64,000 bases of DNA from NCBI GenBank assembly GCA_963703315.1, contig OY969811.1:2880001-2944000 (forward strand), in the 5' to 3' direction. Both the position numbers and the translations under genes were made by a program. This stretch comes from an uncultured cyanobacterium (lineage in GTDB: Bacteria; Cyanobacteriota; Cyanobacteriia; Pseudanabaenales; Pseudanabaenaceae). Of this stretch, positions 3,697 through 64,000 are shown piece by piece. How positions within the stretch are numbered: the stretch's first letter is position 1; each line of letters starts with the position of its first letter. The notes under the pieces are model-generated. The model was given only the letters and a program-made list of their open reading frames with translations. It ran no database searches and had not been told where the DNA came from.

Positions 3697-4452
3697 GTGG
3701 CTCTTCCCTTATTAGAATACGCCCCAACATCGCGAAACACTCGCGTCACTGGTTTTACAGTCGGTGGTAATAACACCCCTCATATTTACACTACCAACAA
3801 TGGTCTGTCGAAAACAGAACTAGACGATTTAATTGAAGCTGCCTATCGTCAGCTTTTCTTCCATGCTTTTGCAGTAGATCGCGAAGTCACATTGGAATCC
3901 CAACTTCGTTCTGGCAACCTCACTGTCAGACAGTTTGTGCGGGGTCTCGTGCTTTCCAACACCTATAGAAGAAGTTTTTACGAAAAGAACAGCAACTATC
4001 GTTTTGTAGAGCAAACTGTACAGCGTGTTCTCGGTCGTGATGTTTATAGCGAACGCGAAAAAATTGCTTGGTCAGCCGTAGTTATGACTAGGGGCATTGA
4101 AGGCTTCATTGATGATCTAATCAATAGTGATGAGTACCTTGATGCATTTGGTGATGACACCTTACCTTACCAACGTCGTCGTGTGCTACCTAGCCAAGCT
4201 ATTGGTGAAGTGCCTTTCAACATCAAGTCTCCTCGCTATGATGCTTACCACCGCGCACAATTGGGCTTCCCACAACTCATTTGGCAAAACAATGTTCGTG
4301 GCTATACTCCAGCCGACAGACAACCAAGAGCAGGCGATCCAGCTTTGTTCTTGAACTTGGCTCGTAGCCTCAATGCACCGCCTGCTGCACCAAGAATCAT
4401 CTCCGCGCAGAATCTTGATTACAACAACTTGGTTCCTTACCGTAAGCGCTAA
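3697..4452 (+). CDS. cpcG: Phycobilisome rod-core linker polypeptide CpcG
   Basis: [10 protein letters not shown] start, [35 protein letters not shown] start with GGAG; hydrophilic C-terminus (not CpcL-type). Confidence 0.93.
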
Positions 4453-9564: not shown

Positions 9565-9669
9565 ATGAAAATCGTTAGCCGTAAATCGTTAGGTGTGCAA
9601 TCTGTTTTTGACATCGGCTTAGAAGGCGATCATAATTTTTTACTAGATAAGGGTTATATTGCCTCAAAT
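9565..9669 (+). other. Split intein C-fragment (35 aa)
   Basis: MKIVSRKSLGVQSVFDIGLEGDHNFLLDKGYIASN followed by CFN extein. Confidence 0.95.
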
Positions 9670-10932
9670 TGCTTTAATAAGTCCCATAGTGTCGCCTATG
9701 GATATGTAACCTACCAGACAGCATATCTAAAAGCGAATTATCCCGTTGAATATATGGCAGCGCTATTGTCTTCGGTCAGTGGTGACCAAGACAAAGTGCA
9801 GCGCTATATTGCTAACTGCCGTAGCATGGCTATTGATGTCCTACCTCCTGATGTCAATAGTTCAGGAGAAGACTTTACGCCACGTGGTCAGCAAATTTTA
9901 TTTGGATTAGCAGCAATTAAAAATCTCGGTGCAGGACCGATCGCGGCAATTTTACAGGCGCGTCAGGATGGTGCTTTTACATCTTTGGCAGATTTATGTA
10001 GTCGCCTCGATTCGCGATCGCTTAACAAAAAAGCGTTAGAAGCCTTAATTCAAACTGGGGCGCTCGATTTATTAGAGCCGAATCGTCATCAGTTGATGAG
10101 TGACCTCGATATTACGATGGAATGGGCTTCGCGCCGTGCTAAGGAGCAAGCATCGGGTCAGGGCAATATTTTTGACTTTTTTGGTGAAAGTAGCAATACG
10201 AAAACCTTTGATACTGCACCAAAAACAACTCGCGTGCAGGATTATTCTTCGCAGGAAAAACTGCGCCTAGAAAAGGAATTGCTTGGTTTTTACATTTCCG
10301 ATCATCCCCTGAGCGTAGTTAGTCGCTCGGCGAGGGTGATGGCTCCGATTAATCTCTGCGATATTCCTGATTCTTCAGAAACTAAGATCGTGACGGCGAT
10401 CGCGATCATTCTCGATATTAAAGAAGTCGTCACTAAAAAAGGCGATCGCATGGCAATTGTGCAACTTGAAGACCTGACGGGCAGTACCGAAGCTGTAGTT
10501 TTCCCCAAAACCTTTGATAAGGTGAAGCATCTGCTTGAAAAAGATAAACGCTTGATGGTGTGGGGCAAAATTGATCGCCGCGATGAACAAACCCAATTAA
10601 TTATTGACAATATGCAGTCCATTGAGTCAGTGCGAATGGTGCGGGTCGAGCTTACTCGCGAACAGGCAAGCGATCGCCAAGTTTTGCAACAACTTAAGAA
10701 TGCCTTAAATCCTAATCCTAGCTATAGCAATGCTAGTCAAGGTAATTCTAGCTATGGCAGAAATGAACCCGATACTTCTGGCAAAATCCCTGTGATTGCC
10801 TCGATTGAATATATGCCCAAACTTGTACGCTTAGGCAATCAGTTTTGGGTTGAAGATGAAGAGACTGCTGTTAAGTCCTTAAAGCAAGCAGGATTTAATG
10901 CCACCTACGACGCACTAGTTACCAATAATTAA
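9565..10932 (+). CDS. dnaE: DNA polymerase III alpha subunit, C-terminal half, fused to the C-part of a split intein (DnaE-c)
   Basis: 35-aa IntC then CFNKSHSVAYGYVTYQTAYLKANYP; EKELLGFYISDHPL; OB fold. Confidence 0.97.
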   Translation: MKIVSRKSLGVQSVFDIGLEGDHNFLLDKGYIASNCFNKSHSVAYGYVTYQTAYLKANYPVEYMAALLSSVSGDQDKVQRYIANCRSMAIDVLPPDVNSSGEDFTPRGQQILFGLAAIKNLGAGPIAAILQARQDGAFTSLADLCSRLDSRSLNKKALEALIQTGALDLLEPNRHQLMSDLDITMEWASRRAKEQASGQGNIFDFFGESSNTKTFDTAPKTTRVQDYSSQEKLRLEKELLGFYISDHPLSVVSRSARVMAPINLCDIPDSSETKIVTAIAIILDIKEVVTKKGDRMAIVQLEDLTGSTEAVVFPKTFDKVKHLLEKDKRLMVWGKIDRRDEQTQLIIDNMQSIESVRMVRVELTREQASDRQVLQQLKNALNPNPSYSNASQGNSSYGRNEPDTSGKIPVIASIEYMPKLVRLGNQFWVEDEETAVKSLKQAGFNATYDALVTNN

Positions 10933-19355: not shown

Positions 19356-20654
19356 ATGTCAGAGGTTAAATCAGTATCCCAAGTTCTCTTAGGTTATAAA
19401 TCAGCGCTTGAGAAACTGGAAAGAACATATCCAAAGCCATCATCTACTGATGCCTTAGTTGTTCTAATGAAGCGAGAGGAGTTGCAAGCTTTACTTTCAG
19501 AACGTCCTGAATTGCTAACTGCAAACCTGATCGCGATCGCAGATTTAGACAATCGGCTCAAAAACCAAAAAAGTTTAATTGTTAAGTTGCTAAAGCTTTC
19601 TGAATGGAGAGCAATTCTTGAACCGCCTGAAAAGCATTGGTGGTGGTTTTTCTCTTCTAAATGGGAGAGATTTGATTGGCTGTGGAACGCTGGTTCTATT
19701 CTGTTTTTGGCTGTTTCCTTGGGGTTACTGGTTAATACATCAACTAGGATGCTGAGTGGTGGCGCAACCTCTGGAAATACGATATTTGTGGTATTGCAAA
19801 GCGTTTTACCGTTATTAGTTGGTGGTGGGACTTTCACGCAAGCAGGGAAAGAAGCCTATGAAAAAGTTCTGATTAGCTTGCAGATTGATAAACAGTTTTG
19901 GCAAGAAATTAGTTGCGGTTTATCTTTTCTAGTATTGTGCATTTTGTTTGGAGTGAATTCTTCCTTACCCAATTGGGCGATCGCTGTTAATCAGAGTGGC
20001 ATCACAAATTACAACAATAAGCGCATAGAAAGTGCAAAAGCTGATTTTGAGAGGGCGATCGCTATGCGTCCTGACTATGGCGAAGCTCATTACAATCTTG
20101 GCTGGCTTTATGAAGAACTAAATGATCTTGAGAAGGCGAAAGTGCAGTATGAGTTAGCTGTTCAAGGCGATCTGCAAAAATTTGATCAGGGTGTTAATCA
20201 TCTCAAGGCGTTGAATAATTTAGGGCGTTTATACATTCTCAAAAAGGAATATGGAACGGCTGTACGTTTTCTCAATCAAGGTATCCAAGAGAGCGCAAGT
20301 ACTAAATCTATGACTTCATGGGAAAATTCTAGTGACGGAGGAGTCTATTACAATTTACGCAAAAATATGGGCTGGGCGAGGTTCATGCAGGAGCGCTATG
20401 TTGAAGCAGAGGTGCAGCTTAGAGCAGTGATCGCTTTAGAGCCTAAACGCAGTTCTGCTTACTGCTTGCTAGCTCAGGTTTTAGAGGCTAAAGAGCCAAA
20501 TAATCAAGCGATCGCCTTAGAGTTTTGGACAAAATGTATCCGTTTCGCAACTCCGATGGATTTTTCTCAGTCAGAGGAGGATGACTGGTACGGATTGGCG
20601 AATAAGCGTTTGGATAAGGCGTTTTCCAACAAAGATACAAGTAAGGATAAGTAA
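19356..20654 (+). CDS. Membrane-anchored TPR protein
   Basis: About 110-aa N-terminal domain ending WWWF, about three hydrophobic segments, TPRs (AHYNLGWLYEE, ALNNLGRLYI, SAYCLLAQVLE). Confidence 0.8.
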   Translation: MSEVKSVSQVLLGYKSALEKLERTYPKPSSTDALVVLMKREELQALLSERPELLTANLIAIADLDNRLKNQKSLIVKLLKLSEWRAILEPPEKHWWWFFSSKWERFDWLWNAGSILFLAVSLGLLVNTSTRMLSGGATSGNTIFVVLQSVLPLLVGGGTFTQAGKEAYEKVLISLQIDKQFWQEISCGLSFLVLCILFGVNSSLPNWAIAVNQSGITNYNNKRIESAKADFERAIAMRPDYGEAHYNLGWLYEELNDLEKAKVQYELAVQGDLQKFDQGVNHLKALNNLGRLYILKKEYGTAVRFLNQGIQESASTKSMTSWENSSDGGVYYNLRKNMGWARFMQERYVEAEVQLRAVIALEPKRSSAYCLLAQVLEAKEPNNQAIALEFWTKCIRFATPMDFSQSEEDDWYGLANKRLDKAFSNKDTSKDK

Positions 20655-20656
20655 CC

Positions 20657-21559
20657 ATGCAAAAGCGATCGCGAGTTGGGCAAGCCTTTATATTTGGTTG
20701 TGGTTTATTAAGTATGTTAGGGACGCTGGTATTGCCTGAGATGGCTGTGGCTAATCCTCCTGTCAGGATTTGGTCGCTTAGTCCTAAGGCGAGCATTCTC
20801 CGTAATGGAGTGAGTAAACCAGCACGTTATTTTATGGAGATAAAGCCAGAGGATCTGGTGAAGCCTGAGATTGGTAGGGTGTTGGAGGTTCTTTGTTCTG
20901 ATAATCAAATCCGTACAGTACAATCTGGTGTCTTTTCAGGATTAGGCACAATCTGTCCTCTATCTTCTTCAAATCGTATAACTCCCAATACTTTTGAGTC
21001 ACGCGGTAATAACTGTTCTTCGATCGCGCCTAATGTTTTGGCTCCTGCATCTGACAAACTAATCGCGACAACGGCTGCTTATCCCACGTTTCAGTTTTTA
21101 GTGCCAACGACATCGGCGAGTCAGGCTGAGTTTGTCCTCAAAGGTAGCGATCGCAAGGCGATTTATCGTCAGACCTTTGCTTTGTCTGGTCAGTCGGGTA
21201 TTTTACGAGTGGCGTTACCTACCGATGGCAGCATTGGCGAGTTGGCTTTGGGGCAGACCTATAAATGGGAGCTTAATATCATTTGCGATCCAAGCGATCG
21301 CAAGCAGGACGACTTTGTGGTGGGTTCTTTGCAGAGAGTGCCTCTAGCGAATGATCCTCAGCATCAGTTACCGCTATCTTTGCGCGATCGCCTCTTGTTT
21401 TATAGTGTCAAAGGATTAAATTATGATGAATTAGTGGTGTTGGATGCATTGCGAAGGGAAGCTCCGACCGATGGCGAGATCCAAACTTATTGGGAGTCTT
21501 TGTTAGAACGCTACAAGTTGGGAGATTTGAAAAGGTTGCCAGCGATCGCCTTGCCGTAG
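20657..21559 (+). CDS. Secreted DUF928-domain protein
   Basis: Signal peptide ending AVA; TTAAYPTFQFLVP, AEFVL, YKWELNIIC, GSLQRV recalled as typical of DUF928. Confidence 0.75.
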   Translation: MQKRSRVGQAFIFGCGLLSMLGTLVLPEMAVANPPVRIWSLSPKASILRNGVSKPARYFMEIKPEDLVKPEIGRVLEVLCSDNQIRTVQSGVFSGLGTICPLSSSNRITPNTFESRGNNCSSIAPNVLAPASDKLIATTAAYPTFQFLVPTTSASQAEFVLKGSDRKAIYRQTFALSGQSGILRVALPTDGSIGELALGQTYKWELNIICDPSDRKQDDFVVGSLQRVPLANDPQHQLPLSLRDRLLFYSVKGLNYDELVVLDALRREAPTDGEIQTYWESLLERYKLGDLKRLPAIALP

Positions 21560-21598
21560 CCAAAATCTCAGTAAATTTGAAAATAATAAGGAGTTAAT

Positions 21599-21892
21599 AT
21601 GACGCAAATTATTTTAGAAATCGGTCAGCCTATGGTCATTGAAAAGCTGAGAAGTCTTGCCCAAAAGTATCAGCGAACTTTGGAGGAGCAGATTGTTCTA
21701 ATTTTAGAAAATGCTGTTACGCCTTTGCCCCAAGGACAAGGGACTGTTTCTGCCTTAGATAATGGTCAAGATGGCTTTTGGGATATGACTTTAAGGTTTA
21801 GGCAGAGGATACAGCAGGAAAATATTGTGTTCACTGACGAAGATTTTGCGGGTTTGCGCGATCGCTCTGCGGGTCGGGAGGTTGAGTTTTGA
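21599..21892 (+). CDS. Antitoxin-like protein (FitA/VapB type)
   Basis: Small, AGGAG RBS, N-terminal RHH-like segment, C-terminal LRDRSAGREVEF; TTGA overlap with a PIN-domain remnant. Confidence 0.7.
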   Translation: MTQIILEIGQPMVIEKLRSLAQKYQRTLEEQIVLILENAVTPLPQGQGTVSALDNGQDGFWDMTLRFRQRIQQENIVFTDEDFAGLRDRSAGREVEF

Positions 21893-21987
21893 CTTTAAGG
21901 TATTTGTTAGACACCAATGTTATTTCGGAGGTGACTCGTCCAAGCCCTAAGACTAATATTGTCCGAAAGCTTACTGAGCATCAATGA
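21889..21987 (+). pseudogene. Truncated VapC/PIN toxin
   Basis: TTG start; MTLRYLLDTNVISEVTRPSPKTNIVRKLTEHQ then TGA after 32 codons; the LDTN..SE PIN motif is present but the rest of the domain is not recognisable. Confidence 0.85.
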
Positions 21988-22138
21988 GCGAGAACAACGG
22001 CTACCATTGCTGCACTCAAGATGAATCGTTCGCCTTTGGTTCGGGTTAGAACGATGTGGGTAAAATTGGGCGAACATCCACCCGCATAGGAATAATTGTA
22101 GGCTGTCGCATTAAGGTTAAACAAATAGAGAGGCTGAA

Positions 22139-25100
22139 ATGATGCGTAAGGTTGGTGTGGCGGTGAGTCGGGTTGGATTGATTTTGATGTTGGGAATGTT
22201 TGGTGTTCCTTTGATTTCGCCGAGTTTTAGTCAGTCGAATTCTGATCTTTCTTCACCAGCTTTGAAGGAGGCGTTGGAACTTCATGAGCAGGCGTTTCAA
22301 CTCTACAATCAGGGGAAATATCGAGAGGCAATTGCCATAGCACAACGTTCCCTCTCGATCTATGAAAAAACATTAGGAGTCAATCATCCCGATATCGCTA
22401 ATAGCCTCAACAATCTCGCGACATTTTATCAGTCACAAGGGAACTACCCAGCCGCCGAACCACTTTATAAACGTTCCCTCGCGATCTATGAAAAAGCATT
22501 AGGAGCCGAGCATCCCTCCGTCGCCACTAGCCTCAATAATCTCGCTGGGTTATATCAGGCACAGGGGAACTACCCATCCGCCGAACCACTTTATAAACGT
22601 TCCCTCGCGATTCGCGAAAAAGCATTAGGAGATGATCATCCTGATGTCGCTACTAGCTTCAATAATCTTGCAGCGTTGTATCGATCACAGGGGAACTATC
22701 CAGCCGCCGAACCACTTTACAAACGTTCCCTCGCGATCTATGAAAAAGCTTTAGGAGCCGAGCATCCCTCTGTCGCCACTAGCCTCAATAATCTCGCATT
22801 GTTGTATGATTCACAGGGGAACTACCCAGCCGCCGAACCACTTTACAAACGTTCCCTCGCGATCTATGAAAAAGCTTTAGGAGCCGAGCATCCCTCTGTC
22901 GCCACTAGCCTCAATAATCTCGCATTGTTGTATGATTCACAGGGGAACTACCCAGCCGCCGAACCACTTTATAAACGTTCTCTTGCAATTCTAGAAAAAG
23001 CATTAGGAACCGAGAATCCCTCTGTCGCCACTAGCCTCAATAATCTCGCAGCGTTGTATCGATCACAGGGGAACTACCCATCTGCCGAACCACTTTATAA
23101 ACGTTCTCTTGCAATTCTAGAAAAAACATTGGGATCTGAGCATCCCGATGTCGCCACTAGCCTCAATAATCTCGCTGGGTTATATCAGGCACAGGGGAAC
23201 TACCCATCCGCCGAACCACTTTATAAACGTTCCCTCGCGATTTATAAAAAAGCATTAGGAGCCGAACACCCCCTTATCGCCACTAGTCTCAATGGTCTCG
23301 CAGTTTTGTATCAGTCACAGGGGAACTACCCATCCGCCGAACCACTTTATAAACGTTCTCTCACAATCTATGAAAAAGCATTAGGAGCCGAGCATCCCAA
23401 TGTCGCCAATAGTCTCAATAACCTCGCAGCGTTGTATGCCGCACAGGGAAATATTGATCGCGCAATTACATTTCGACAAAAAGGACTTGAAGTTCAAGAG
23501 TACAACTTAAAACTCAATCTAGGATCTGGCACTGAAATCCAAAAAGAAGCTTATATGCAAACCGTTTTGGGCAGAACCTTTGAGACTCTTTTCCTCCACG
23601 TCCAATCCGCCCCCACAAATCCCGCCGCCATTCGCCTAGCCCTAACCGCCATTTTGCAACGCAAAGGTCGTCTCCTCGATATCTTATCAACCAACCTGCA
23701 AACCCTCCGCCAATACCTCACCCCCGACATCCAACCACAATTTGACCAATGGCTAACCCTCAAAAGCCAACTCGCCAACCTGACCCTAAAAAATACCCCT
23801 ATCGACAAATATCGCCCAATCCAACAACAAGCCGAAGAATTAGAATCCAACCTCAATCGTCGCAGTTCAGAACTGCAAGCAATCAACGAAACCGTCACCA
23901 TCGAAGCAGTCCAAAAACAAATCCCCAACGATGCAGTCCTGATCGAACTATTTCGCTACAGCCCATTCAATCCTAAAGCAGCCTTAGATAAAGACAAATG
24001 GGGAAATCCTCGCTACGTTGCCTATATTCTCCATTCCCAAGGTGAACCCAAATGGGTAGACCTCGGCGAAGCCGCAACCTTAGAGCCATCAATTCAAACA
24101 TTTCGCCAAGCCATAGGACGCAACCCCACCAATCCCGATCGCGACTCCGATCCGCAATTAACCATAGCCGAAGTCAAACAAGCCGCCCGTAACCTCGACC
24201 AAAAGTTAATGCAACCGATCCGTCCCCTGCTAGGCAACGCCCGTCATCTGCTGATTTCACCCGATAGCCAACTCAACCTCATCCCCTTTGCTGCCCTCGT
24301 TGACGAGCAGAACCGCTTCCTCCTCGAAACCTACGACATCACCTATCTCTCGTCAGGACGCGACTTACTCCGCCTAAAACGCACGGGTATCAATCTCCAA
24401 AATCCCGTTCTTTTCTCCGACCCCAACTACGGTAAACCCTCAGATAAATTAATTGCTAGCATTGGTCGCAACCCCTGCGAATCCAAGATTGCCGCCAGAG
24501 GTGAAGACATAACTGACCTAGCCAGCAAAATATTTTGTCCACTCCCCAACGTCGCCGCCGAAACCAACGCCATTCAGAATCTTTTGCCACGATCTCAATT
24601 ACTGAGCCAGTCCCAAGCCACCAAAGCAACTGCCAAACAACTCCACAACCCTAGCATTCTCCACTTTGCCACCCACGGCTTCTTCCTACCCGATCCACCC
24701 AATATCAATCCCGACACCCCGATCCGCCAAAATCCCCTCGCGCGATCTGCCCTAGTCCTAGCTAACTTCAATCAGCGCCAATCTTGCAGCGACTCCGACT
24801 CCAATTGCAATGGCTTACTCACAGCCCAAGATGTCACCACCATCGACCTGCGCGGAACCAAACTCGTATTTCTCTCCGCCTGTGAAACAGGACTAGGCAA
24901 AGTCTCCAACGGCGAAGGTGTATATGGCTTGCGCCGAGCCTTTACCCTCGCAGGAGCCGAGAGCCAAGTGATGAGCCTCTGGAAAGTCAACGATCAAGTT
25001 ACGAGGGAATTAGTCGAGAGCTACTACCAAAATCTCAAGGCAAATCAAGGGCGTAGCCAGTCCCTCAAAACGATTCAGTTAGATTTACTAAAAAAATATC

Positions 25101-25174
25101 AATATCCCTACTATTGGGCAGCCTTTATCCCCTCTGGCAATTGGTCAGCAATGCCTGAAGTTTTTAAAAACTAA
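22139..25174 (+). CDS. Secreted TPR-repeat CHAT-domain (caspase-like) protease
   Basis: Signal peptide; nine 42-aa TPRs; ISPDSQLNLIPFAAL; catalytic His (LHFATHG) and Cys (LSACETG); YPYYWAAF. Confidence 0.93.
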   Translation: MMRKVGVAVSRVGLILMLGMFGVPLISPSFSQSNSDLSSPALKEALELHEQAFQLYNQGKYREAIAIAQRSLSIYEKTLGVNHPDIANSLNNLATFYQSQGNYPAAEPLYKRSLAIYEKALGAEHPSVATSLNNLAGLYQAQGNYPSAEPLYKRSLAIREKALGDDHPDVATSFNNLAALYRSQGNYPAAEPLYKRSLAIYEKALGAEHPSVATSLNNLALLYDSQGNYPAAEPLYKRSLAIYEKALGAEHPSVATSLNNLALLYDSQGNYPAAEPLYKRSLAILEKALGTENPSVATSLNNLAALYRSQGNYPSAEPLYKRSLAILEKTLGSEHPDVATSLNNLAGLYQAQGNYPSAEPLYKRSLAIYKKALGAEHPLIATSLNGLAVLYQSQGNYPSAEPLYKRSLTIYEKALGAEHPNVANSLNNLAALYAAQGNIDRAITFRQKGLEVQEYNLKLNLGSGTEIQKEAYMQTVLGRTFETLFLHVQSAPTNPAAIRLALTAILQRKGRLLDILSTNLQTLRQYLTPDIQPQFDQWLTLKSQLANLTLKNTPIDKYRPIQQQAEELESNLNRRSSELQAINETVTIEAVQKQIPNDAVLIELFRYSPFNPKAALDKDKWGNPRYVAYILHSQGEPKWVDLGEAATLEPSIQTFRQAIGRNPTNPDRDSDPQLTIAEVKQAARNLDQKLMQPIRPLLGNARHLLISPDSQLNLIPFAALVDEQNRFLLETYDITYLSSGRDLLRLKRTGINLQNPVLFSDPNYGKPSDKLIASIGRNPCESKIAARGEDITDLASKIFCPLPNVAAETNAIQNLLPRSQLLSQSQATKATAKQLHNPSILHFATHGFFLPDPPNINPDTPIRQNPLARSALVLANFNQRQSCSDSDSNCNGLLTAQDVTTIDLRGTKLVFLSACETGLGKVSNGEGVYGLRRAFTLAGAESQVMSLWKVNDQVTRELVESYYQNLKANQGRSQSLKTIQLDLLKKYQYPYYWAAFIPSGNWSAMPEVFKN
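22380..23450 (+). repeat. Tandem array of 126-bp TPR-coding units
   Basis: Recurrent cagggGAACTAcccagccgccgaaccacttta and actagcctcaataatctcgc at a 126-nt period. Confidence 0.92.
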
Positions 25175-54457: not shown

Positions 54458-56254
54458 TTAACTTTTAGCAGGAGGCAAAGACAACTTAACGTGTAGTTCT
54501 TTCAATTGCGAGTCATCGACACTGGATGGCGCATCGGTCAACAGGTCGCGTGCTTGCTGAGTTTTCGGGAAAGCAATCACATCACGGATCGAGTCTGCAC
54601 CAGCAATCAACATCACTAAGCGATCGAGTCCAAAGGCTAAACCGCCGTGAGGAGGAGTGCCATATTCAAAGGCTTCCATGAGGAATCCAAACTTCTCTTT
54701 TGCTTGCTCATCACTTAGCCCGATCGCCGCAAATACTTTCTCTTGAACTTCGCGCTTATGAATCCGAATACTACCACCGCCAATCTCTGTACCGTTAAGT
54801 ACAAGGTCATAGGCTAGTGCGATCGTATTCACATCAATAGGTTGACCATCGGCAATATCTTCAGGACGAGGCGATGTGAAGGGATGGTGCAGTGCTTCCA
54901 ATCTTTTCTCATCAGCATTCCACTCAAACATCGGGAAATCAGTGATCCAGACAAAATTGAGCTTGTCATGATCGATTAATCCTAACTCATGACCTAGAGC
55001 TAAACGTAAACGATAGAGAGATTCATTGACGATCGCCTTTTCACCAGCACCAAATAACAGGATTGTCCCTGCGGTTGCGCCTGTGCGTTCGAGCAATTCC
55101 TTCTTAACTTCATCGGTAAGGCTATCTTTAAGAGCGCCGATGGTATCGATTACGCCGCCTTCACGCACGCGGATAAAGGCTAAGCCCTTTGCGCCATACT
55201 GTGCAACGAGATTGGATAAGTCGCCACCGGGTTTGATGCGGGTATTGGAAATTGCTTCATCACCACCAATGACGGGTAGAACTTTGATAATGCCGCCATT
55301 GGCAACGGTGTTGGCAAAAACTTTAAAGCCCGAATTGGCAAACAAATCAGTGACATTGACCAATTCCATACCAAAGCGAGTATCAGGGCGATCGCAGCCA
55401 TAGCGATCCATTGACTCAGCGTATGTAAGTCGAGGGAAATCACCAAGTTCTACACCTTTAACAGTTTTGAAAATGTAGCGAATTAGGTTCTCATTTAGCT
55501 CAATAATTTCTTCCTGAGACATGAAACTCATTTCCATGTCCAGTTGCGTAAATTCAGGCTGGCGATCAGCCCGAAGGTCTTCATCACGGAAACATCGCGC
55601 AATCTGATAGTAGCGATCGCATCCGCCTACCATTAGCAATTGCTTAAACAACTGTGGAGACTGAGGCAATGCATACCATTGACCTGCATTAACTCGACTT
55701 GGCACAAGATAATCCCGCGCTCCTTCAGGAGTGGAACGGCAAAGGATCGGCGTTTCCACTTCCATAAAGCCATATTCATCTTCAAGGAAGCGACGAATCG
55801 ATTTGACCACCTCAAATCTGAGTTTGAGATTGCTGGCTAGGCGATCGCCACGCATATCGAGATAGCGATATTTCAGGCGCAATTCTTCTTTAATCGTGTC
55901 CGCTTCCGAAATTAGGAAGGGTAGCGGCTTGCTGACTGCATTCAATAATTCGATTGATTCTGCATAAATTTCTACTTCACCTGTAGCTAGTTTCGGATTG
56001 AGCGACTCGTCGGGACGCTTAGAAACTTTGCCGATAATCCTGACCACGTATTCATTTCGCATTTCCCCTGCGAGGTCATAGGACTCAGGAGTACGCTGGG
56101 GATCGCTGACGATTTGCAAGATTCCTGTGCGATCGCGCAAATCTAAAAAGATCACACCACCATGATCCCGTCTGCGATCGATCCAACCGCACAAGCTAAC
56201 TGTTTGTCCGATATGTTCGGCGTTGAGGTGACCGCAATAGTTGCTACGCATCAT
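54458..56254 (-). CDS. aspS: Aspartyl-tRNA synthetase (probably non-discriminating)
   Basis: [40 protein letters not shown]; His in RDHGG suggests the ND type. Confidence 0.97.
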
Positions 56255-56376
56255 GATGTTATTGGCGAAACTTTAGATAAAAAAGTGAAAATTGTAATTT
56301 TGACCATTTACTATCATAACTTGTAAAGGATTCAAAACTTAAAAAACTAAAGATAGACAGCAATTCTCAATTATGG

Positions 56377-59300
56377 CTACTTGGCAAGCTGCATTGTGTC
56401 TAGCCACTCAATTAAATGATCGAGTTGTTTATCATGGGATAACGTGCCTAAACCTCTCACAGTGACATTGCCTTTGCTAAATACAAAGCGCGATCGCAAA
56501 TGACTCGGTAAATGCTCATGGAGTAATTTCCATGCTGGTTCTTCCATCTTTGACTCTAGGACAACGTGTTGCTTACCATCAGGCTTAATCCGTGAGAAGC
56601 CAATTCGCTTAGCAATTAACTTCAATTCCATGACTTTGATTAATTGCATGGCAGGGGCAGGAACCTTTCCATAACAATCATTCCATTCTTCAATAATTTG
56701 GGTAAGCTCACGGCGCGAATTGACAGAAGCTACGGCTCGGTAGGCGCTCATCTTGCGGTCGCCATCAGGAATATACTCCGCAGGTATAAAAGCAGTAATC
56801 GGTAAATCCACCTGTGTATCATCGACTTCAGGGATTTCCGAACCACGTATTTCGGCGATCGCCTCTTGCAGCATTTCCATATAGAGATCAAAGCCAATCG
56901 TGTTAATCTGTCCAGACTGTTCTGCACCAAGCAAATTGCCGACACCTCTGATTTCCATATCGCGCATTGCTAATTGATAGCCTGAACCGAGATGCGTAAA
57001 TTCTTGAATTGCTTTCAGTCGTTTACGAGCGACATCGGTGAGTTCACCTTTCTCTTGATAAAACAGCCATGCATGGGCTTGGATGCCAGCACGACCGACC
57101 CGACCTCGCAATTGATAAAGTTGTGCTAGTCCAAATCTTTGAGCATCTTCGATAATGATCGTATTCACACGAGGAATATCCAACCCAGATTCGATAATCG
57201 TAGTACAGATCATCATGTCTGCTTCACCACTATTGAAACTGAGCATGGTTGCTTCGAGTTCCGCTTCGGGCATCTGTCCATGCGCGATCGCCATGCGTAC
57301 CGATGGCAACATTTCATGAACTCTTGCCGACACCTCCTCAATATCATCAATGCGCGACACCACATAAAAAATCTGCCCACCGCGATCGAGTTCTTGACGG
57401 ATGGCTGCCCTTACCAATTCAAGGTTATAGCGAGAGAGATGGGTCATGATCGATCGCCTTGAGGGTGGTGGCGTAGTAATCAGACTCATTTCCCGCACGC
57501 CCGACATCGCCATATACAAAGTGCGCGGAATCGGTGTTGCGGAAAGGGTGAGAACATCTACTTCTGTTTTGAGAGTTTTGATTTTCTCTTTCTGAGCCAC
57601 ACCAAAGCGTTGTTCTTCATCAATTACCAATAGCCCTAAATCCTTAAATTCCACTTCTTTGGATAGAAGCTGATGCGTACCGACCACAATATCTAATTCA
57701 CCCGTTTTTAATTTTTTGAAGATTTCCTTCTTTTCAGAAGTAGTGCGGAAACGGTTAAGCAGTGCAATATTCACAGGATAGGCTGCATAGCGTTCTTGCA
57801 AACTATGATAATGCTGTTGCGCCAGAATCGTTGTGGGGACTAGTAGCGCTGCTTGTTTGCCAGAGGTGACTGCTTTAAAAATGGTACGAATCGCTACTTC
57901 CGTTTTACCAAAACCAACATCGCCACAAACAAGACGATCCATTGGACGGGAACTTTCCATATCCTGCTTCACGTCCTGTGTTGCCTTGAGTTGATCAGGT
58001 GTGGCTTGATAGGGAAAGGAATCTTCCATTTCCTGCTGCCAAGGATTATCAGGAGGGAAAGAATATCCCACTTGTTGCGATCGCTTGGCATAAAGTTCTA
58101 ACAAATCAAAGGCAATCTTCTTAATCGCTTTCTTGGCTTTGCTGGTAGTGTTTGTCCAAGCCTTGCTTGCCATTTTATGCAGTTCGGGCTTGCCTTCATT
58201 CATGCCCCGATAGCGCGATAGAGTGGACATTTGATCGACAACTACTCGTAACAATCCATCGGCATATTTGAGAACTAAATATTCGCGAGTTTCCTTATTA
58301 ACCGTCAACTTCTCTAATTTAATAAACTGACCCACACCATGATTTTTATGTACAACGTAATCACCTGCGGATAATTTATTCAGATCAACCTGTTTGGAGA
58401 CGGCTCGGCGGCGTTTACGCACATAGTTGGGAGTTCCCAAGGCGTGCTGTCCAAAAAACTCGCGATCGCTAATTACAGCAATCCGATAGGTGGGCAGTAC
58501 AAAACCTTGGATCTCGGCAATGCCTGAATATTTCAAAGCTACGGCAATCCGTAAATTATGGGTTTTCTCGATCGCAGGATAATCACGGACATTGGGAATA
58601 AACTGCGCCTGACAATCATGTTCTTGGAGCAGCGCAACCGTGCGCGAAGGCTGGGCGGAGATGAGAATGATTTTGTACTTCTGTTCGCGATAGTCGCGAA
58701 TTGTCTGAGCTAGCTTCCCGAACTGGTGCGGAATCGCAGGAACAGAACGACTAGCCATATTCAACCCACGATTTTCTTCGGCTAGTTCCGATAGATCAAG
58801 GCGATCAAATTTATTAATTTGTTCTAGACATTCCGTAAAGGAGCGATGGAGTTTGCCCTCACCCCCAGCCCCTCTCCCATTGAGGGAGAGGGGAGCAATT
58901 TCTACAGAGGATTCATACCAGCGATCGCAATGGGCTTGACATTGATCGATTTCATCAATGACGACTAAACAATTTTCTGGACTTGGTAAATAATCTAATA
59001 AAGAAGCGGTGGAGTTGGGATGAACCGCAAAACCTTGAGGTGTAAACTCATCCTCTAGCTCGTCATTGGTTGATGTGGAATCTCCTAATATATGACCGTA
59101 GCTAGTGGGAGTCAGTAAGATAGAGGGAATACTATCCAGTGGTCTTTGGGTGGCGGGTTCAAACTCACGAATCCGTTCGATTTCATCGCCAAACCAGTCA
59201 ATCCGCACAGGCATTTCACTAGAAACTGGGAAAATATCAATAATATCGCCACGTCTTCCCCATTGCCCCTCAGTTTCCACGGTTGAGGTATGGCTATAGC

Positions 59301-59802
59301 CCATTAGGGTTAAGTTTTCCGCCATATCTTGCAGTTTAATCTCAGAACCAACTTCCAAAGATAGGCAATATTCTTTAAAGGCTTCAGGACTGGGTAAATG
59401 CGGCTGAAGGGCGCGATCTGTCGCCACGATCGCTACTTTTTTCTTGTCTCCCTCGCGCTCATGCCAATTCACCAAATCCGCTAACACCTGCATCTGTCCC
59501 CAAATGATCTCTGATTCAGGCTGATAAGGCTCGTAGGGCAAGGCATCGGAATTGGGGTAAAAATGCACAGTCTGCCAACCCATCGTTTCCAATTGCACAG
59601 ACCAACGCCCTGCCTCCTCAATCGTGGCGGCAATCACTAACATCAGCCGTTCTTGCTTTTGACTCAAGGTGGAGCTAACGAGTCCTTTGCCCACCCGCGA
59701 TAAACCTGAAAGACTGAGTTGATGCGATCGCACCAATTTACTCTCTAGTTCATCAGTGAGAGGCGATCGGATTAATGAACGAATTACAGAGGAAAATGGC
59801 AT
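56377..59802 (-). CDS. mfd: Transcription-repair coupling factor
   Basis: [39 protein letters not shown]-terminus. Confidence 0.98.
58856..58896. repeat. Small dispersed repeat embedded in frame in mfd
   Basis: ccctcacccccagcccctctccc-attga-gggagaggggagc, read as [14 protein letters not shown] on the minus strand. Confidence 0.8.
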
Positions 59803-59953: not shown

Positions 59954-60110
59954 ATTTAATTAAGCTTTCCCACTTAGTAACGCTTATGCTAACCGCTAAG
60001 GGACTCGTAATAGATTTTTGTGGCGCGGCAAAGCCGCGCCACAAAAATCTCTAGTTCTTTATTTACCACGCTAACAAAATTTGCAGCGATTTTTGGGAGA
60101 TAAGTTTTTA

Positions 60111-61466
60111 ATGATCAGACACTTAGAAGAACAAAATCTAGAATATGCGTTTTATCAGCTAGCCGATCGCCTGATTGAGCGTCTCCACCATGACGAACAT
60201 CTCACGATTAATTTAGATAGTGAGCGCAGCCAATTCACGAGATTTAATCATGCTAAGGTTCGACAATCAGGGGTTGTCGCTGATGGAAATGTGACAATTT
60301 CGCTGATTTTTAATCAACGCGAAGCCTATGCCGAATTTCCCTTTACGGGCGATCTCAGTACCGATATCGCGATCGCCATCACCAGCCTCGATTATCTTAG
60401 GCAAGAAGTCGCCCAAATTCCTGAAAATCCTTATCTGGTCTTACCTGAAAATCAAGGCTCCAGTCGGGAAGTTTATCAAGGCAAGTTGTTAGCACCAGAA
60501 GAGGCGATCGCCACAATTCTCGCACCTGTAGCAAACATTGACTTTACAGGCTTTTATGCATCAGGTTCGATCATTCGTGCCAATGCCAACTCCGCAGGTC
60601 AGAGACATTGGTTTGCGACCGATTCTTTCTTTGTCGATTATTCGATGTTTGTCCAGACTAATTCTGGAGAAAAAGCTGTCAAAGGTATTTACGCTGGTAC
60701 AGAATGGCAACCAGAGTCTTACAAGTTAAAGATTGCGCGATCGCAAGAGCAACTCGTAGCTTTACAAAGACCTAGCAAAACTCTAGAACGTGGGCAGTAC
60801 CACACCTATTTTGCCCCCGATGCTGCTGCCTATTTATTGAGCTTCCTCACTTGGAGCGTAGGGGAGGCGAGTTTACAGCAGGGTAGTAGCGCCCTTTTGA
60901 AATTAAAAAATCAGGAACGCACCCTCTCACCCTTGCTATCCCTCAACGAAAACTTCACCTACGGCAATGTGCCACGTTTTAATAGCTTAGGGGAAGTAGC
61001 ACCTGAACATTTAGCGATTATTAGCAATGGCAAGCTAGTAAATACGCTCGTCAGTTCTCGCAGTGCTAAGGAATATGGCAAAACTGCCAATGGTGCAGGT
61101 AGTGGTGAATCAATGCGATCGCCTGAAATTGCCGCAGGAAATTTAACGGGCGCAAATATTCTTAACCAGTTAGATACGGGGCTATATCTGTCAAATCTGC
61201 ATTATCTGAACTGGAGCGATCGCGCTGGCGGCAGAATCACAGGCATGACTCGCTATGCTTGTTTCTGGGTCGAAAATGGCGAATTAATTGCCCCCATTGA
61301 AAATCTGCGTTTTGACGATAGTATTTACGATTTCTTAGGCGACAATCTTGAAGAATTGACAGCATTTCGGGAATTTATTCCTGATACGGGAACCTATGAA
61401 AAGCGATCGCTAGGCGGTATTCTCTCCCCTGGAATGCTAATTAAAGACTTTACATTTACGCTGTAA
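60111..61466 (+). CDS. TldD/PmbA family protein (TldE-like, no HExxH)
   Basis: TRFNHAKVRQ, GLYLSNLHY, TGMTR, WVENGELIAPIENLRF; ATG 60111 with GGGAG. Confidence 0.88.
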   Translation: MIRHLEEQNLEYAFYQLADRLIERLHHDEHLTINLDSERSQFTRFNHAKVRQSGVVADGNVTISLIFNQREAYAEFPFTGDLSTDIAIAITSLDYLRQEVAQIPENPYLVLPENQGSSREVYQGKLLAPEEAIATILAPVANIDFTGFYASGSIIRANANSAGQRHWFATDSFFVDYSMFVQTNSGEKAVKGIYAGTEWQPESYKLKIARSQEQLVALQRPSKTLERGQYHTYFAPDAAAYLLSFLTWSVGEASLQQGSSALLKLKNQERTLSPLLSLNENFTYGNVPRFNSLGEVAPEHLAIISNGKLVNTLVSSRSAKEYGKTANGAGSGESMRSPEIAAGNLTGANILNQLDTGLYLSNLHYLNWSDRAGGRITGMTRYACFWVENGELIAPIENLRFDDSIYDFLGDNLEELTAFREFIPDTGTYEKRSLGGILSPGMLIKDFTFTL

Positions 61467-61583: not shown

Positions 61584-61943
61584 TAGCTAGGTTATTAGTA
61601 TTGATAGATACACTTACTATTTACTTGTGTATAAGGTTTTATGCTTTATCTCGGACATTATTCACTAGTCCAATCTTGAGATTATTAAAAAAAAGTAAAA
61701 TAGACTAGGGATAGCTGATTATGCAAAACTATGCCTAGTCTTTAAGTGCTAAAACATTTACCTAGAGAGCTTTTACAGCTTTATATCATCAGTTTATTCA
61801 GTTAGCTATATCCAATAATTTTAAGCTTTTAACATTATCTGCGACATTTGGCGGTAGAAAAAAGTTATCTAATAGTTATATAAAGTAATTATTTTTCAAA
61901 AAATCGGGTAAGCTGTTAAGGTAGCTTAAGAGCCAGAATTTCT

Positions 61944-62183
61944 ATGTTGTTAACTTCCTACAAAAATATTCTGCCAGCTTCAATTGCCTTAATCGGGGGG
62001 GTAATGTTGACTGTTGGTTTTCCACAGCTATTGCTAGAAAATAATCACGTAGGATACACACCATCTCGTCCTCAACCTAAGACGACGCAAGGTGGAGGAT
62101 CTCGTTTAATAGATATTAATCGTGAATTAGTATCTTCTCGTTCACTAGCTCCTCAAGCTAGTACTGCAAAAACATTAGCTTAA
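61944..62183 (+). CDS. Small predicted-secreted protein with a Pro-rich GGGSR motif
   Basis: Hydrophobic N-terminal segment, then YTPSRPQPKTTQGGGSR; followed by a terminator-like hairpin at 62228-62280. Confidence 0.7.
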   Translation: MLLTSYKNILPASIALIGGVMLTVGFPQLLLENNHVGYTPSRPQPKTTQGGGSRLIDINRELVSSRSLAPQASTAKTLA

Positions 62184-62282
62184 AGTAACGTTTAGCATGA
62201 TCATAGGCACGAAGTTTCAGGCAAATTACACCAAAAAAATAGAGAGAGATTCTAAGAATCTCTCTCTATTTTTTTGGTGTTA

Positions 62283-62397
62283 TATAGCGAGTTACAGGAG
62301 ATTGTTTCCCCGCCGAAGGCGGGGAAACAATCCCGTACTTCATGCACCTAAAAAGCGAGTTGCGGCGCTTCGCGCCGCAACTCGCTTTTTAGGTGCA
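62283..62397. repeat. Two abutting MITE-derived hairpins
   Basis: gattgtttccccgcc-gaa-ggcggggaaacaatc (relative of the 43625 element, reversed) and tgcacctaaaaagcgagttgcggcgc-ttc-gcgccgcaactcgctttttaggtgca. Confidence 0.75.
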
Positions 62398-62499
62398 GCT
62401 TACGACAAAGCGCTTGCATACATTTAAGCAGGAATTTGATAGGATAAAGTCATTTCAAAATGTGGGTCTTAGGGCGGCAATTCTAACTAAAATCTTTAA

Positions 62500-64000
62500 A
62501 TGATTGCTATCAAAACACTTAAGTCCAATTGGGAAAAATTACCTCGTAGAATTCAACAATGGGGCGGCTTTTTTCTGTCTAGTGGCAGTATCTACTTATT
62601 AGTATTTGGGCTGCGTTGGTTAGGTTGGTTACAGCCGATGGAATGGGCGGCTTTTGACCTATTTATTCAGCTTCGACCTGAAGAGCCTGTTGATCAACGA
62701 GTGATCATTGTTGGTGTCAAAGAGTCAGACATTCGTTATTTGGGTAGGTGGCCCGTATCTGACCGCATTCTTGCCAAAGTTTTGCTTAAAATTCGTGACC
62801 AACAACCGAAAGTGATTGGGCTGGACTTATATCGAGATATTCCCGTTGATGATGGCTACAAAGAATTAGAGCAGGTATTTAAAACTACACCTAATCTCAT
62901 TGGTATCGAAAAAAGTATTGGCGATCGCTTTGATAGTGTGATTGCACCACCGCCTGCTTTAAAAGTACTGGGACAGGTATCTGCAAATGATGTAATTATT
63001 GATCCTGATGGCAGATTGCGACGGGCTTTACTCTATCCATTGCCTGAAGGTAATGAGGGTTTAGCAAGTCTTGGCTTGGAAATAGCCCTAAGATATCTCA
63101 AAGATAAGGGCATAGAACCGAAATCTTCAGCTTCTGGCAATTTACAGCTTGGCAATACCATTTTTAAGCCGATCGAAAGTACTGATGGCGGCTATATTAA
63201 CGCGGATGCAGGGGGATATCAAATCTTGATGAACTATCACGGTTCTTCAGACAAGTTTCGGCATATTTCCCTTGAAGATCTACTAGAGAATCGCATTGAT
63301 CCCAATTTAATGCGCGATCGCATTGTGTTAATTGGCGTTCAGGCAGTTAGTCTTAATGATGTTTTTTACACACCCTACAGTAGTAATTTCATCACTTCCC
63401 CAACGCGAATGTCGGGAGTTGAGGTGCAAGCAAATATCATTAAATCAGTCTTAGGGGCAGTTCTTGATAATCGACCACTTTTCAAAGTCTGGACAGATCT
63501 ATGGGAAGAGATCTGGATTGCTTGCTGGGCGATCGCTGGGGCGGCAATTATTAGCATATTTGCGACTAGACGCTTAATTTTGATTGGCGTGATTATTGGT
63601 GGAGCAATTCTCCTGAGCGGTAGTACTTATGCTCTCTTTCTAGGAGGATGGTGGATACCCTTAGCACCCTGTTTAGTGACTTATATCGGCTCAATCTTGG
63701 TAATGCAGAGCTATACCTATGTCTCACAACTACGCGAATTAAACTCAGCGCTTTCAGATTCGGTGGAAATGCTAGCCCATGATGCTTCCCATGATGCCTT
63801 GACAGGTTTACCAAATCGCAATCTCTTTATGGATCGCGTAGAACACGCAATTAAATATAGTAAACGTCATCCTAGTTATCTATTTGCGATCTTTTTTATT
63901 GACTTAGATCGCTTCAAGATGATTAATGACAGTCTGGGACATCATATTGGTGACTTGTTCTTACAGGCGATCGCGCAGGTTTTACAGGATTGTTTACGTT
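62500..64000 (+). CDS. CHASE2-sensor GGDEF-domain protein, 3' truncated by the window (absent from the ORF track)
   Basis: ATG 62500; LQPMEWAAFDLFIQLRP, WPVSDRILA, IGLDLYRD, DPDGRLRR, MSGVEVQA, three TM segments, then HDALTGLPNR...FIDLDRFKMINDSLGH. Confidence 0.93.
   Translation, partial: MIAIKTLKSNWEKLPRRIQQWGGFFLSSGSIYLLVFGLRWLGWLQPMEWAAFDLFIQLRPEEPVDQRVIIVGVKESDIRYLGRWPVSDRILAKVLLKIRDQQPKVIGLDLYRDIPVDDGYKELEQVFKTTPNLIGIEKSIGDRFDSVIAPPPALKVLGQVSANDVIIDPDGRLRRALLYPLPEGNEGLASLGLEIALRYLKDKGIEPKSSASGNLQLGNTIFKPIESTDGGYINADAGGYQILMNYHGSSDKFRHISLEDLLENRIDPNLMRDRIVLIGVQAVSLNDVFYTPYSSNFITSPTRMSGVEVQANIIKSVLGAVLDNRPLFKVWTDLWEEIWIACWAIAGAAIISIFATRRLILIGVIIGGAILLSGSTYALFLGGWWIPLAPCLVTYIGSILVMQSYTYVSQLRELNSALSDSVEMLAHDASHDALTGLPNRNLFMDRVEHAIKYSKRHPSYLFAIFFIDLDRFKMINDSLGHHIGDLFLQAIAQVLQDCLR

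Follow-up and report, generated by a model that had tools for sequence, protein, structure and literature searches.

A short ORF upstream of a CHASE2 receptor gene

At the right-hand end of a 64,000-nucleotide stretch from an uncultured cyanobacterium of the Pseudanabaenaceae (contig OY969811.1, positions 2,880,001 to 2,944,000; this whole stretch is called the window), an open reading frame (ORF) of 79 amino acids (aa) lies upstream of a gene for a membrane receptor with CHASE2, GGDEF and EAL domains. Here, we show that this ORF is what remains of the head of a DUF928 gene, a family for which we know of no function, and we propose, with a probability of about 0.6, that its product is exported as a peptide, binds the CHASE2 domain of the receptor encoded next to it and thereby shifts cyclic di-GMP (c-di-GMP). 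The features of the locus are as follows.

61944..62183, plus strand: 79-aa ORF, head of a truncated DUF928 gene (conservation, homology, RNA-contig cover)
61944..62039, plus strand: signal-peptide-like region with a hydrophobic core at residues 9-23 (predicted export only)
62055..62105, plus strand: motif YTPSRPQPKTTQGGGSR, the candidate ligand, residues 38-54, conserved
62106..62180, plus strand: variable tail, 25 aa in the window allele and 0-50 aa among relatives
61909..61914, plus strand: putative -10 element TAAGCT, about 30 nt 5' of the start codon
62225..62283, no strand assigned: long hairpin, terminator-like on both strands (20-bp hairpin at 62231-62277; hairpin scan)
62300-62332 and 62343-62397, no strand assigned: two palindromic intergenic repeats between the ORF and the receptor gene
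62395..62499, plus strand: degenerate 3' end of the deleted DUF928 domain (YDKALAYI followed by stops; E 2.5e-6)
62500..64000, continuing past the window to 65085, plus strand: CHASE2-GGDEF-EAL membrane receptor, 861 aa (Pfam)

Both parts that the initial annotation had read in the ORF, a signal-like N-terminus and the motif, are present, and residues 9-23 have a mean Kyte-Doolittle value of 2.05. The ORF had also been placed directly upstream of a CHASE2-GGDEF gene. It is indeed the upstream neighbour of that gene, but it does not abut it, as 316 bp with the hairpin and the two repeats lie between the end of the ORF and the start of the receptor. Pfam recovers CHASE2 (PF05226; residues 33-348, E 1.8e-68) and GGDEF (PF00990; from residue 429, E 4.2e-22) in the receptor, which in addition has an EAL domain and leaves the window; its membrane segments were assigned by eye. 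The GGDEF, EAL, DDFGxGYSS and EGVE motifs are intact in all 33 receptor orthologues read.

A Pfam scan of the ORF returned no family at E<=1, NCBIfam likewise gave no match, and in a test for the DUF928 domain (PF06051) the ORF fell below the Pfam cut-off, the folded domain being absent. Many orthologues read TAAGAT, TAAAAT or TATAAT where the window has the putative -10 element, which a consensus promoter scan did not pick up. In the 3.94 million six-frame residues of its own genome, the ORF was the single match of a motif matrix combined with a hydrophobic-signal filter, a specificity test that is partly circular because the matrix included four full-length congeners. The plain motif pattern gave two matches, the ORF and one repeat-derived ORF. 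Another search of this genome had given a second match at window 4261-4407, which lies inside a longer gene, was not recovered by the profile and was dropped as a chance match. Short repeats are abundant in this genome; their translation reads GGASRR in many frames, and naive searches for the motif are overrun by them.

Descent from a DUF928 gene

From which gene did this ORF derive? With a profile of its first 55 residues, 35 of the 48 genomes of the genus were matched, once each, by 30 short forms and five full DUF928 proteins; the head is thus conserved well beyond the window. Several observations establish its origin. First, in the full forms (G007, G019, G024, G029 and G061) the head runs through Gly-Cys into a DUF928 protein of 235-241 aa. 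On four of these, the Pfam DUF928 model scores at E values of about 1e-41 to 1e-42 and its position 1 falls at the GGGSR motif, which bears out the earlier suggestion that the motif is the beginning of DUF928. Second, the ORF is homologous to the N-terminal signal and motif of these true DUF928 proteins at the orthologous locus, at which the full gene abuts the receptor in four of five genomes (with one contig break) and has a TPR-CHAT gene running divergently from it. Third, the frame stops 2-48 residues past GGGSR in the 30 short-form genomes, and the first strand of the lost domain is still in register in the tails of eight sequences. Fourth, 25/30 short-form genomes have a DUF928 3' remnant in the 240 nt that precede the receptor (E<1e-3; 0/30 on the opposite strand), among them that of the window and two genomes whose peptide gene has moved away. 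Finally, all 14 of the longer homologues of the head, from a search in which 7996 candidates were scored, are DUF928 proteins. Because homology of the head is joined by a remnant of the domain downstream, the ORF is a DUF928 gene with its middle deleted, and the ancestral locus, kept in five congeners, consisted of the divergent TPR-CHAT gene, the full DUF928 gene and the receptor gene. The remnant at 62395..62499 has possibly been retained as the receptor's promoter region. A single split between full and short forms is rejected by the receptor tree (approximately unbiased test, p-AU 4e-5) but not by the 55-column head tree (p-AU 0.23), and it is possible that G024 and G029 re-acquired the CHAT-DUF928 block.

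A PmbA/TldE-type peptidase gene lies upstream of the ORF at window 60081-61466, as it does in many short-form genomes and in L222, a further short-form sequence. In the full-form genome G029 a gene of this type is located beyond the CHAT block, an arrangement that fits a block deletion moving the gene beside the peptide gene.

The descent of the ORF also bears on whether it might inhibit HetR in the manner of PatX, or be a double-glycine leader followed by an active variable tail. In a double-glycine leader precursor, the mature peptide follows the GG site, and the conserved head and variable tail of the ORF resemble such precursors; moreover, the nearest protein-atlas clusters are those of PatX, at a score of 0.78, which is below the 0.9 level and is a lead only. 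Nevertheless, given the DUF928 origin, the conserved Ser-Arg after the glycines and the natural forms with 0 or 2 residues past GGGSR, we regard both possibilities as very improbable. The likeness to PatX remarked on in the initial annotation is one of layout, since the window ORF reads TQGGGSR and has neither RGSGR nor HRGTGR. PatX/PatP of Nostoc PCC 7120, as described in the accessible part of PMC12756182, likewise involves a small precursor with a short Arg-ended motif, and PatX is exported by Sec and matured outside the cytosol; in contrast to the window peptide, with its DUF928 descent and its association with a membrane receptor, PatX carries HRGTGR and targets the cytoplasmic HetR.

Selection on the motif and the tail

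We compared 15 disjoint pairs of short forms by simple counting, pooled, with the tails compared without gaps, and obtained ratios of non-synonymous to synonymous change (dN/dS) of 0.05 for the last eight residues of the head (RTQGGGSR) and 0.14 for the last 17, against 0.42 for the signal, 0.71 for the tail and 0.10 for the CHASE2 domain. In 12 close pairs, the eight motif codons have accumulated 20 synonymous and 0 non-synonymous changes. A conserved RNA element as the cause of this conservation was rejected, because third codon positions vary freely. The motif is therefore under purifying selection at the protein level. In a large genome collection, scanned with a genus-specific pattern and hence covering this genus alone, 70/70 short proteins keep the motif in front of tails of 0-50 residues, and conservation stops with the Arg. 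In L222, a stop codon immediately follows the Arg of GGGSR (its contig ends ahead of any receptor position), and the tail is dispensable in at least one natural form.

These results make it improbable that the ORF is a functionless, decaying DUF928 remnant, whether across the family or in the lineage of the window alone. Its origin by deletion is clear and decayed remnants do lie alongside; the window allele has three unusual changes, and in its relative P0063 one more conserved Arg is missing. However, beside the low motif dN/dS with free synonymous change, 30/30 short forms across the depth of the genus read through the motif without interruption of the frame, and stops are found in the remnant next to them; the last 10 motif residues are identical in the window allele and P0063, which differ in their tails; and RNA contigs cover the ORF.

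Co-inheritance with the receptor and loss of the protease

The head travels with one receptor. An orthologue of the receptor (E<1e-170, the next best match being 1e-100) is present in exactly the 35 of 48 genomes that have the head, so that the link between the head and CHASE2 that had been predicted holds without exception among the carriers (35/35). The peptide gene adjoins the receptor in 26/30 short-form genomes, with one contig break, and in G001, G010 and G014 both genes are kept although they are unlinked. The 13 genomes that have neither head nor receptor are scattered on the rpoB tree, on which 12 could be placed; one of the 13 is a single-contig genome and four are <90% complete. Peptide and receptor are thus inherited together, with selection acting on the peptide.

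The protease behaves differently. An orthologue of the cognate CHAT gene was found in 5/5 genomes with full DUF928 and in 0/30 short-form genomes, including that of the window (E<=1e-120, this query), so that the folded DUF928 domain disappeared along with the CHAT orthologue. The His/Cys dyad motifs are intact in the four cognate CHAT proteins read. Because the head tracks the receptor, and the folded domain occurs with CHAT only in the full forms, we assign the folded domain to the protease. Compared with a full DUF928 protein, whose N-terminus is orthologous to the head, the ORF is without the folded domain of about 180 residues and the cognate CHAT gene; the family appears in PMC5587647, which was available in part. 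Maturation by CHAT cleavage, which the initial annotation had envisaged as possible, is consequently unsupported in this genome as far as a cognate CHAT is concerned, although other CHAT paralogues exist (about 15 CHAT-like ORFs).

Those paralogues are relevant to another explanation, in which the peptide is functional without direct contact with CHASE2 and acts through another envelope protein, for instance as a decoy substrate or inhibitor of one of the CHAT proteases, or by way of an adaptor like NsrA, its pathway and locus being those of the receptor as well. The motif, with its small residues before Arg, resembles a protease site, and in Sinorhizobium meliloti the CHASE2 cyclases CyaD1, CyaD2 and CyaK answer a protein signal through NsrA, according to the part of PMC13001267 available. 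On the other hand, the motif has been retained after the loss of the cognate CHAT, it follows a single receptor although each genome encodes several CHASE2 paralogues, and the forms in which Arg is followed by a stop leave no bond to cut. We consider this explanation unlikely, yet the least unlikely of the alternatives. The S. meliloti system is similar to the one proposed here in tying CHASE2 receptors to a protein signal; it differs in its cAMP output and in that a foreign protein is sensed via an outer-membrane protein, with no self-encoded short peptide in the part of the source available (PMC13001267). A precedent for the supposed Arg cut in full-length DUF928 is HetF, whose CHAT domain cuts PatU3 after Arg (PMC9457339, available in part). 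In that account HetF acts by destroying an inhibitor, and no ligand is known to be released by it (PMC9457339); the short form of the window is without a cognate CHAT.

A connection to the cluster at 19-25 kb of the window, also raised in the initial annotation, was not borne out, as the DUF928 protein of that cluster is without the motif and has a full-length orthologue in 2/48 genomes. The cluster (window 19356-25174) comprises a TPR gene, the DUF928 gene, a 97-aa gene with a weak antitoxin-like match (E 0.07) and a TPR-CHAT gene, with no CHASE2 gene among them; its DUF928 protein (Pfam E 2.5e-38) is extended at the N-terminus and carries no GGG(S/T)R motif, and G033 alone yielded a full-length orthologue of it. 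The genome of the window has three further DUF928-like genes with divergent Arg-ended heads (G000:C1:547151-548110, 1262440-1263231 and 2686868-2687767): one in a cassette with CHAT and CHASE2 genes, one after a CHAT gene and one alone. The genome's DUF928/CHAT/CHASE2 cassette also contains genes that we take to be haemagglutinin-like.

CHASE2 loci outside the genus

The search was extended to the class by fetching 80 CHASE2 loci, of about 8 kb each, among 150 matches listed (with 120 beyond these) and with congeners excluded; the counts that follow hold among the matches listed. DUF928-like ORFs were found at 33/80 loci, and 30/36 of these ORFs have an Arg-ended pattern of small residues at the head. 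Signal-bearing ORFs with the motif only occur at three more loci, all with c-di-GMP-type receptors (3/22 against 0/58), a count that is not an independent test because the pattern was written after the three matches had been seen.

The peptides found outside the genus are likened to the genus peptide through the shared motif alone. In one group, a motif-only ORF lies within about 500 bp of a CHASE2-GGDEF/EAL gene in four of five genomes (G046, G048, G084 and G043, with G106 as the fifth member), and the motif ends in His in three of the five. A second peptide family is present in 16/25 genomes of one family group; the protein ends at Arg followed by a stop in 11 of the 15 sequences printed, and a CHASE2-GGDEF gene lies in the fetched region in 9/16.

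Two further sets of ORFs were noted. L253-L267, from family group f27, form a conserved set of secreted-looking proteins of about 81 aa that end in GSGTR-stop and gave no Pfam match in the one member scanned. A CHASE2-GGDEF gene is often next to them; they usually lie between a multi-PAS gene and a gene that is presumably L-aspartate-oxidase-like. In several families, L163, L196, L268, L269 and L270 are motif-only ORFs with (D/E)xPGRRxGGGT(R/H)W beside CHASE2-GGDEF-EAL genes, to which they are divergent, convergent or in tandem.

RNA-library cover

Contigs from RNA libraries of three freshwater runs in two studies cover the ORF with 0-1 differences; these runs were chosen by the window's stretch and their contigs carry no strand or level, which reduces what they can contribute to the peptide proposal. 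In run X1, 13/30 bins of a 17-kb control stretch are covered, including clpC and minC/minD and leaving out 55039-59686, and because this control cover is uneven, RNA is a better fit than stray DNA. The contigs from X1 and X2 start at 61921, which is 7 nt past the putative -10 element. We set this position aside as a transcription start, since X4 breaks nearby, at 61924, and X3 extends further upstream. The receptor gene is thinly covered, and this cover carries no evidence on its level.

A candidate peptide ligand for CHASE2

How might a truncated DUF928 gene serve a CHASE2 receptor? We consider that Sec export and cleavage by signal peptidase would produce a Pro/Arg-rich peptide of 20-25 residues ending in GGGSR, plus the tail. 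In the full form, an exported CHAT protease would cut after Arg (R|G) and free the peptide from the DUF928 domain, so that the protease would gate signalling and the folded domain would serve the protease rather than the receptor. In the short form, this gate would have been lost; the peptide would come from its own transcript, its tail would either be shortened by a general protease or do no harm, and regulation would move to transcription, with the conserved -10-like element upstream and the hairpin downstream. Binding would shift the cyclase/phosphodiesterase balance of the receptor and alter gliding or aggregation, the likely output by analogy with Dgc2, and the peptide might act within the periplasm of the cell that makes it, along its filament or from one filament to another.

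Dgc2 of Leptolyngbya boryana (PMC10581220, available in part) is a CHASE2-GGDEF protein that suppresses motility and biofilm, and the paper states that the CHASE2 ligand is unknown. It shares with the window receptor the CHASE2 domain, membrane segments, GGDEF and a filamentous cyanobacterial host; unlike the window receptor, it has PAS/PAC domains, and the available part of the source lists no EAL domain and describes no peptide partner (PMC10581220). MtxA of Magnetospirillum is an exported neighbour of a CHASE2 receptor, but has Ig-like and TPR domains, with no self-encoded short peptide in the available part of PMC4439547. General speculation that peptides or ligands may bind the CHASE2 domains of orthocaspases is found in PMC7475262, also available in part. 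In a search outside which most subscription journals and supplements lay, we found no publication that connects DUF928, its motif or a peptide with binding to CHASE2. New at this locus are a series of natural deletions, in which selection could be measured, and the separation of a receptor-linked from a protease-linked part.

The receptor side was also examined by modelling. AlphaFold gave the CHASE2 domain a mean confidence (predicted local distance difference test, pLDDT) of 45 from 33 close orthologues and 91.6 from 98 diverse sequences. With the latter model, Foldseek returned no match in the PDB at E<=0.001, and a wide structural search gave a best Z of 5.2, which is uninformative; a PDB search with the CHASE2 sequence gave 0 matches, so that neither sequence nor fold led to a solved relative of CHASE2. 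The conserved acidic residues of CHASE2 are not a marker of a peptide-specific pocket, because they are conserved to the same degree whether or not a neighbour bears the motif.

Several observations weigh against direct binding of the peptide to CHASE2. The support for it is genomic throughout. Co-absences of head and receptor are not independent tests, because linked neighbours can be lost in one deletion, and retention of the unlinked pair is tested by only three genomes in two lineages. The tail has a dN/dS of 0.57 in close pairs, indicating some remaining constraint, and it begins with Leu or Phe in 29/30 short forms; because most short forms have a tail and this tail is constrained, the free C-terminal Arg is only putative. 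Outside the genus, 44/80 CHASE2 loci, including 15/22 of the c-di-GMP type, have neither a DUF928-like nor a motif-only ORF among the matches listed, and the peptide is therefore not a universal neighbour of CHASE2. G106 has no CHASE2 gene within 12 kb of its motif-only ORF, 4/16 loci of the second peptide family are without a CHASE2 gene and a further three are cut by contig ends, and the terminal Arg is replaced by His or Phe in six outside peptides. The window allele itself is the most divergent of the short forms at the motif: it alone among 30 has Thr instead of the Arg conserved at -8, one residue of the motif region is deleted, and it reads LLE where most orthologues have x-x-A, leaving no Ala before the predicted mature part. 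A change of specificity, a product anchored in the membrane or incipient loss of the gene may each account for this allele.

The missing Ala raises the question of whether an uncleaved signal keeps the product in the membrane, or the product does not leave the periplasm, so that it would act as a constitutive accessory subunit, a co-factor for the resting state of the receptor, and the stimulus itself would be something else. The loss of the protease, which removes the obvious gate, and the usual joint encoding of peptide and receptor would both suit such a subunit. Nevertheless, 24/30 short forms match the Ala-ended cleavage pattern, and the gene has an apparent promoter element of its own, often with a downstream hairpin, and can move away from the receptor. 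This explanation seems to us rather unlikely, slightly more so than action without direct contact with CHASE2.

We therefore retain the exported peptide that binds CHASE2 as the favoured explanation. If the peptide does bind, it would give DUF928 a function, CHASE2 a class of ligand and cyanobacteria a new route of peptide signalling that bears on motility and the formation of mats and aggregates. The candidate ligand has been narrowed by the natural deletion series to about 17 residues and can be synthesised, the folded domain is set on the protease side, one peptide is paired with one receptor, and the c-di-GMP output of this receptor is easy to measure. More tentatively, we speculate that the Arg-ended DUF928 head is a general ligand of cyanobacterial CHASE2 domains, released by CHAT ancestrally and repeatedly reduced to pheromone genes at c-di-GMP receptors, where it would serve filamentous cyanobacteria as a strain-specific cell-to-cell signal for gliding and aggregation; this wider scheme is doubtful at present.

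Additional observations

Two features apart from this system were recorded. Window 9565-10932 resembles what we take to be the C-terminal half of a split DnaE with a piece of an intein. The cluster of the 57-aa protein P0003 lists an unrelated protein of 380 aa, P0072, which is presumably carboxypeptidase-like and whose inclusion is apparently a clustering artefact.

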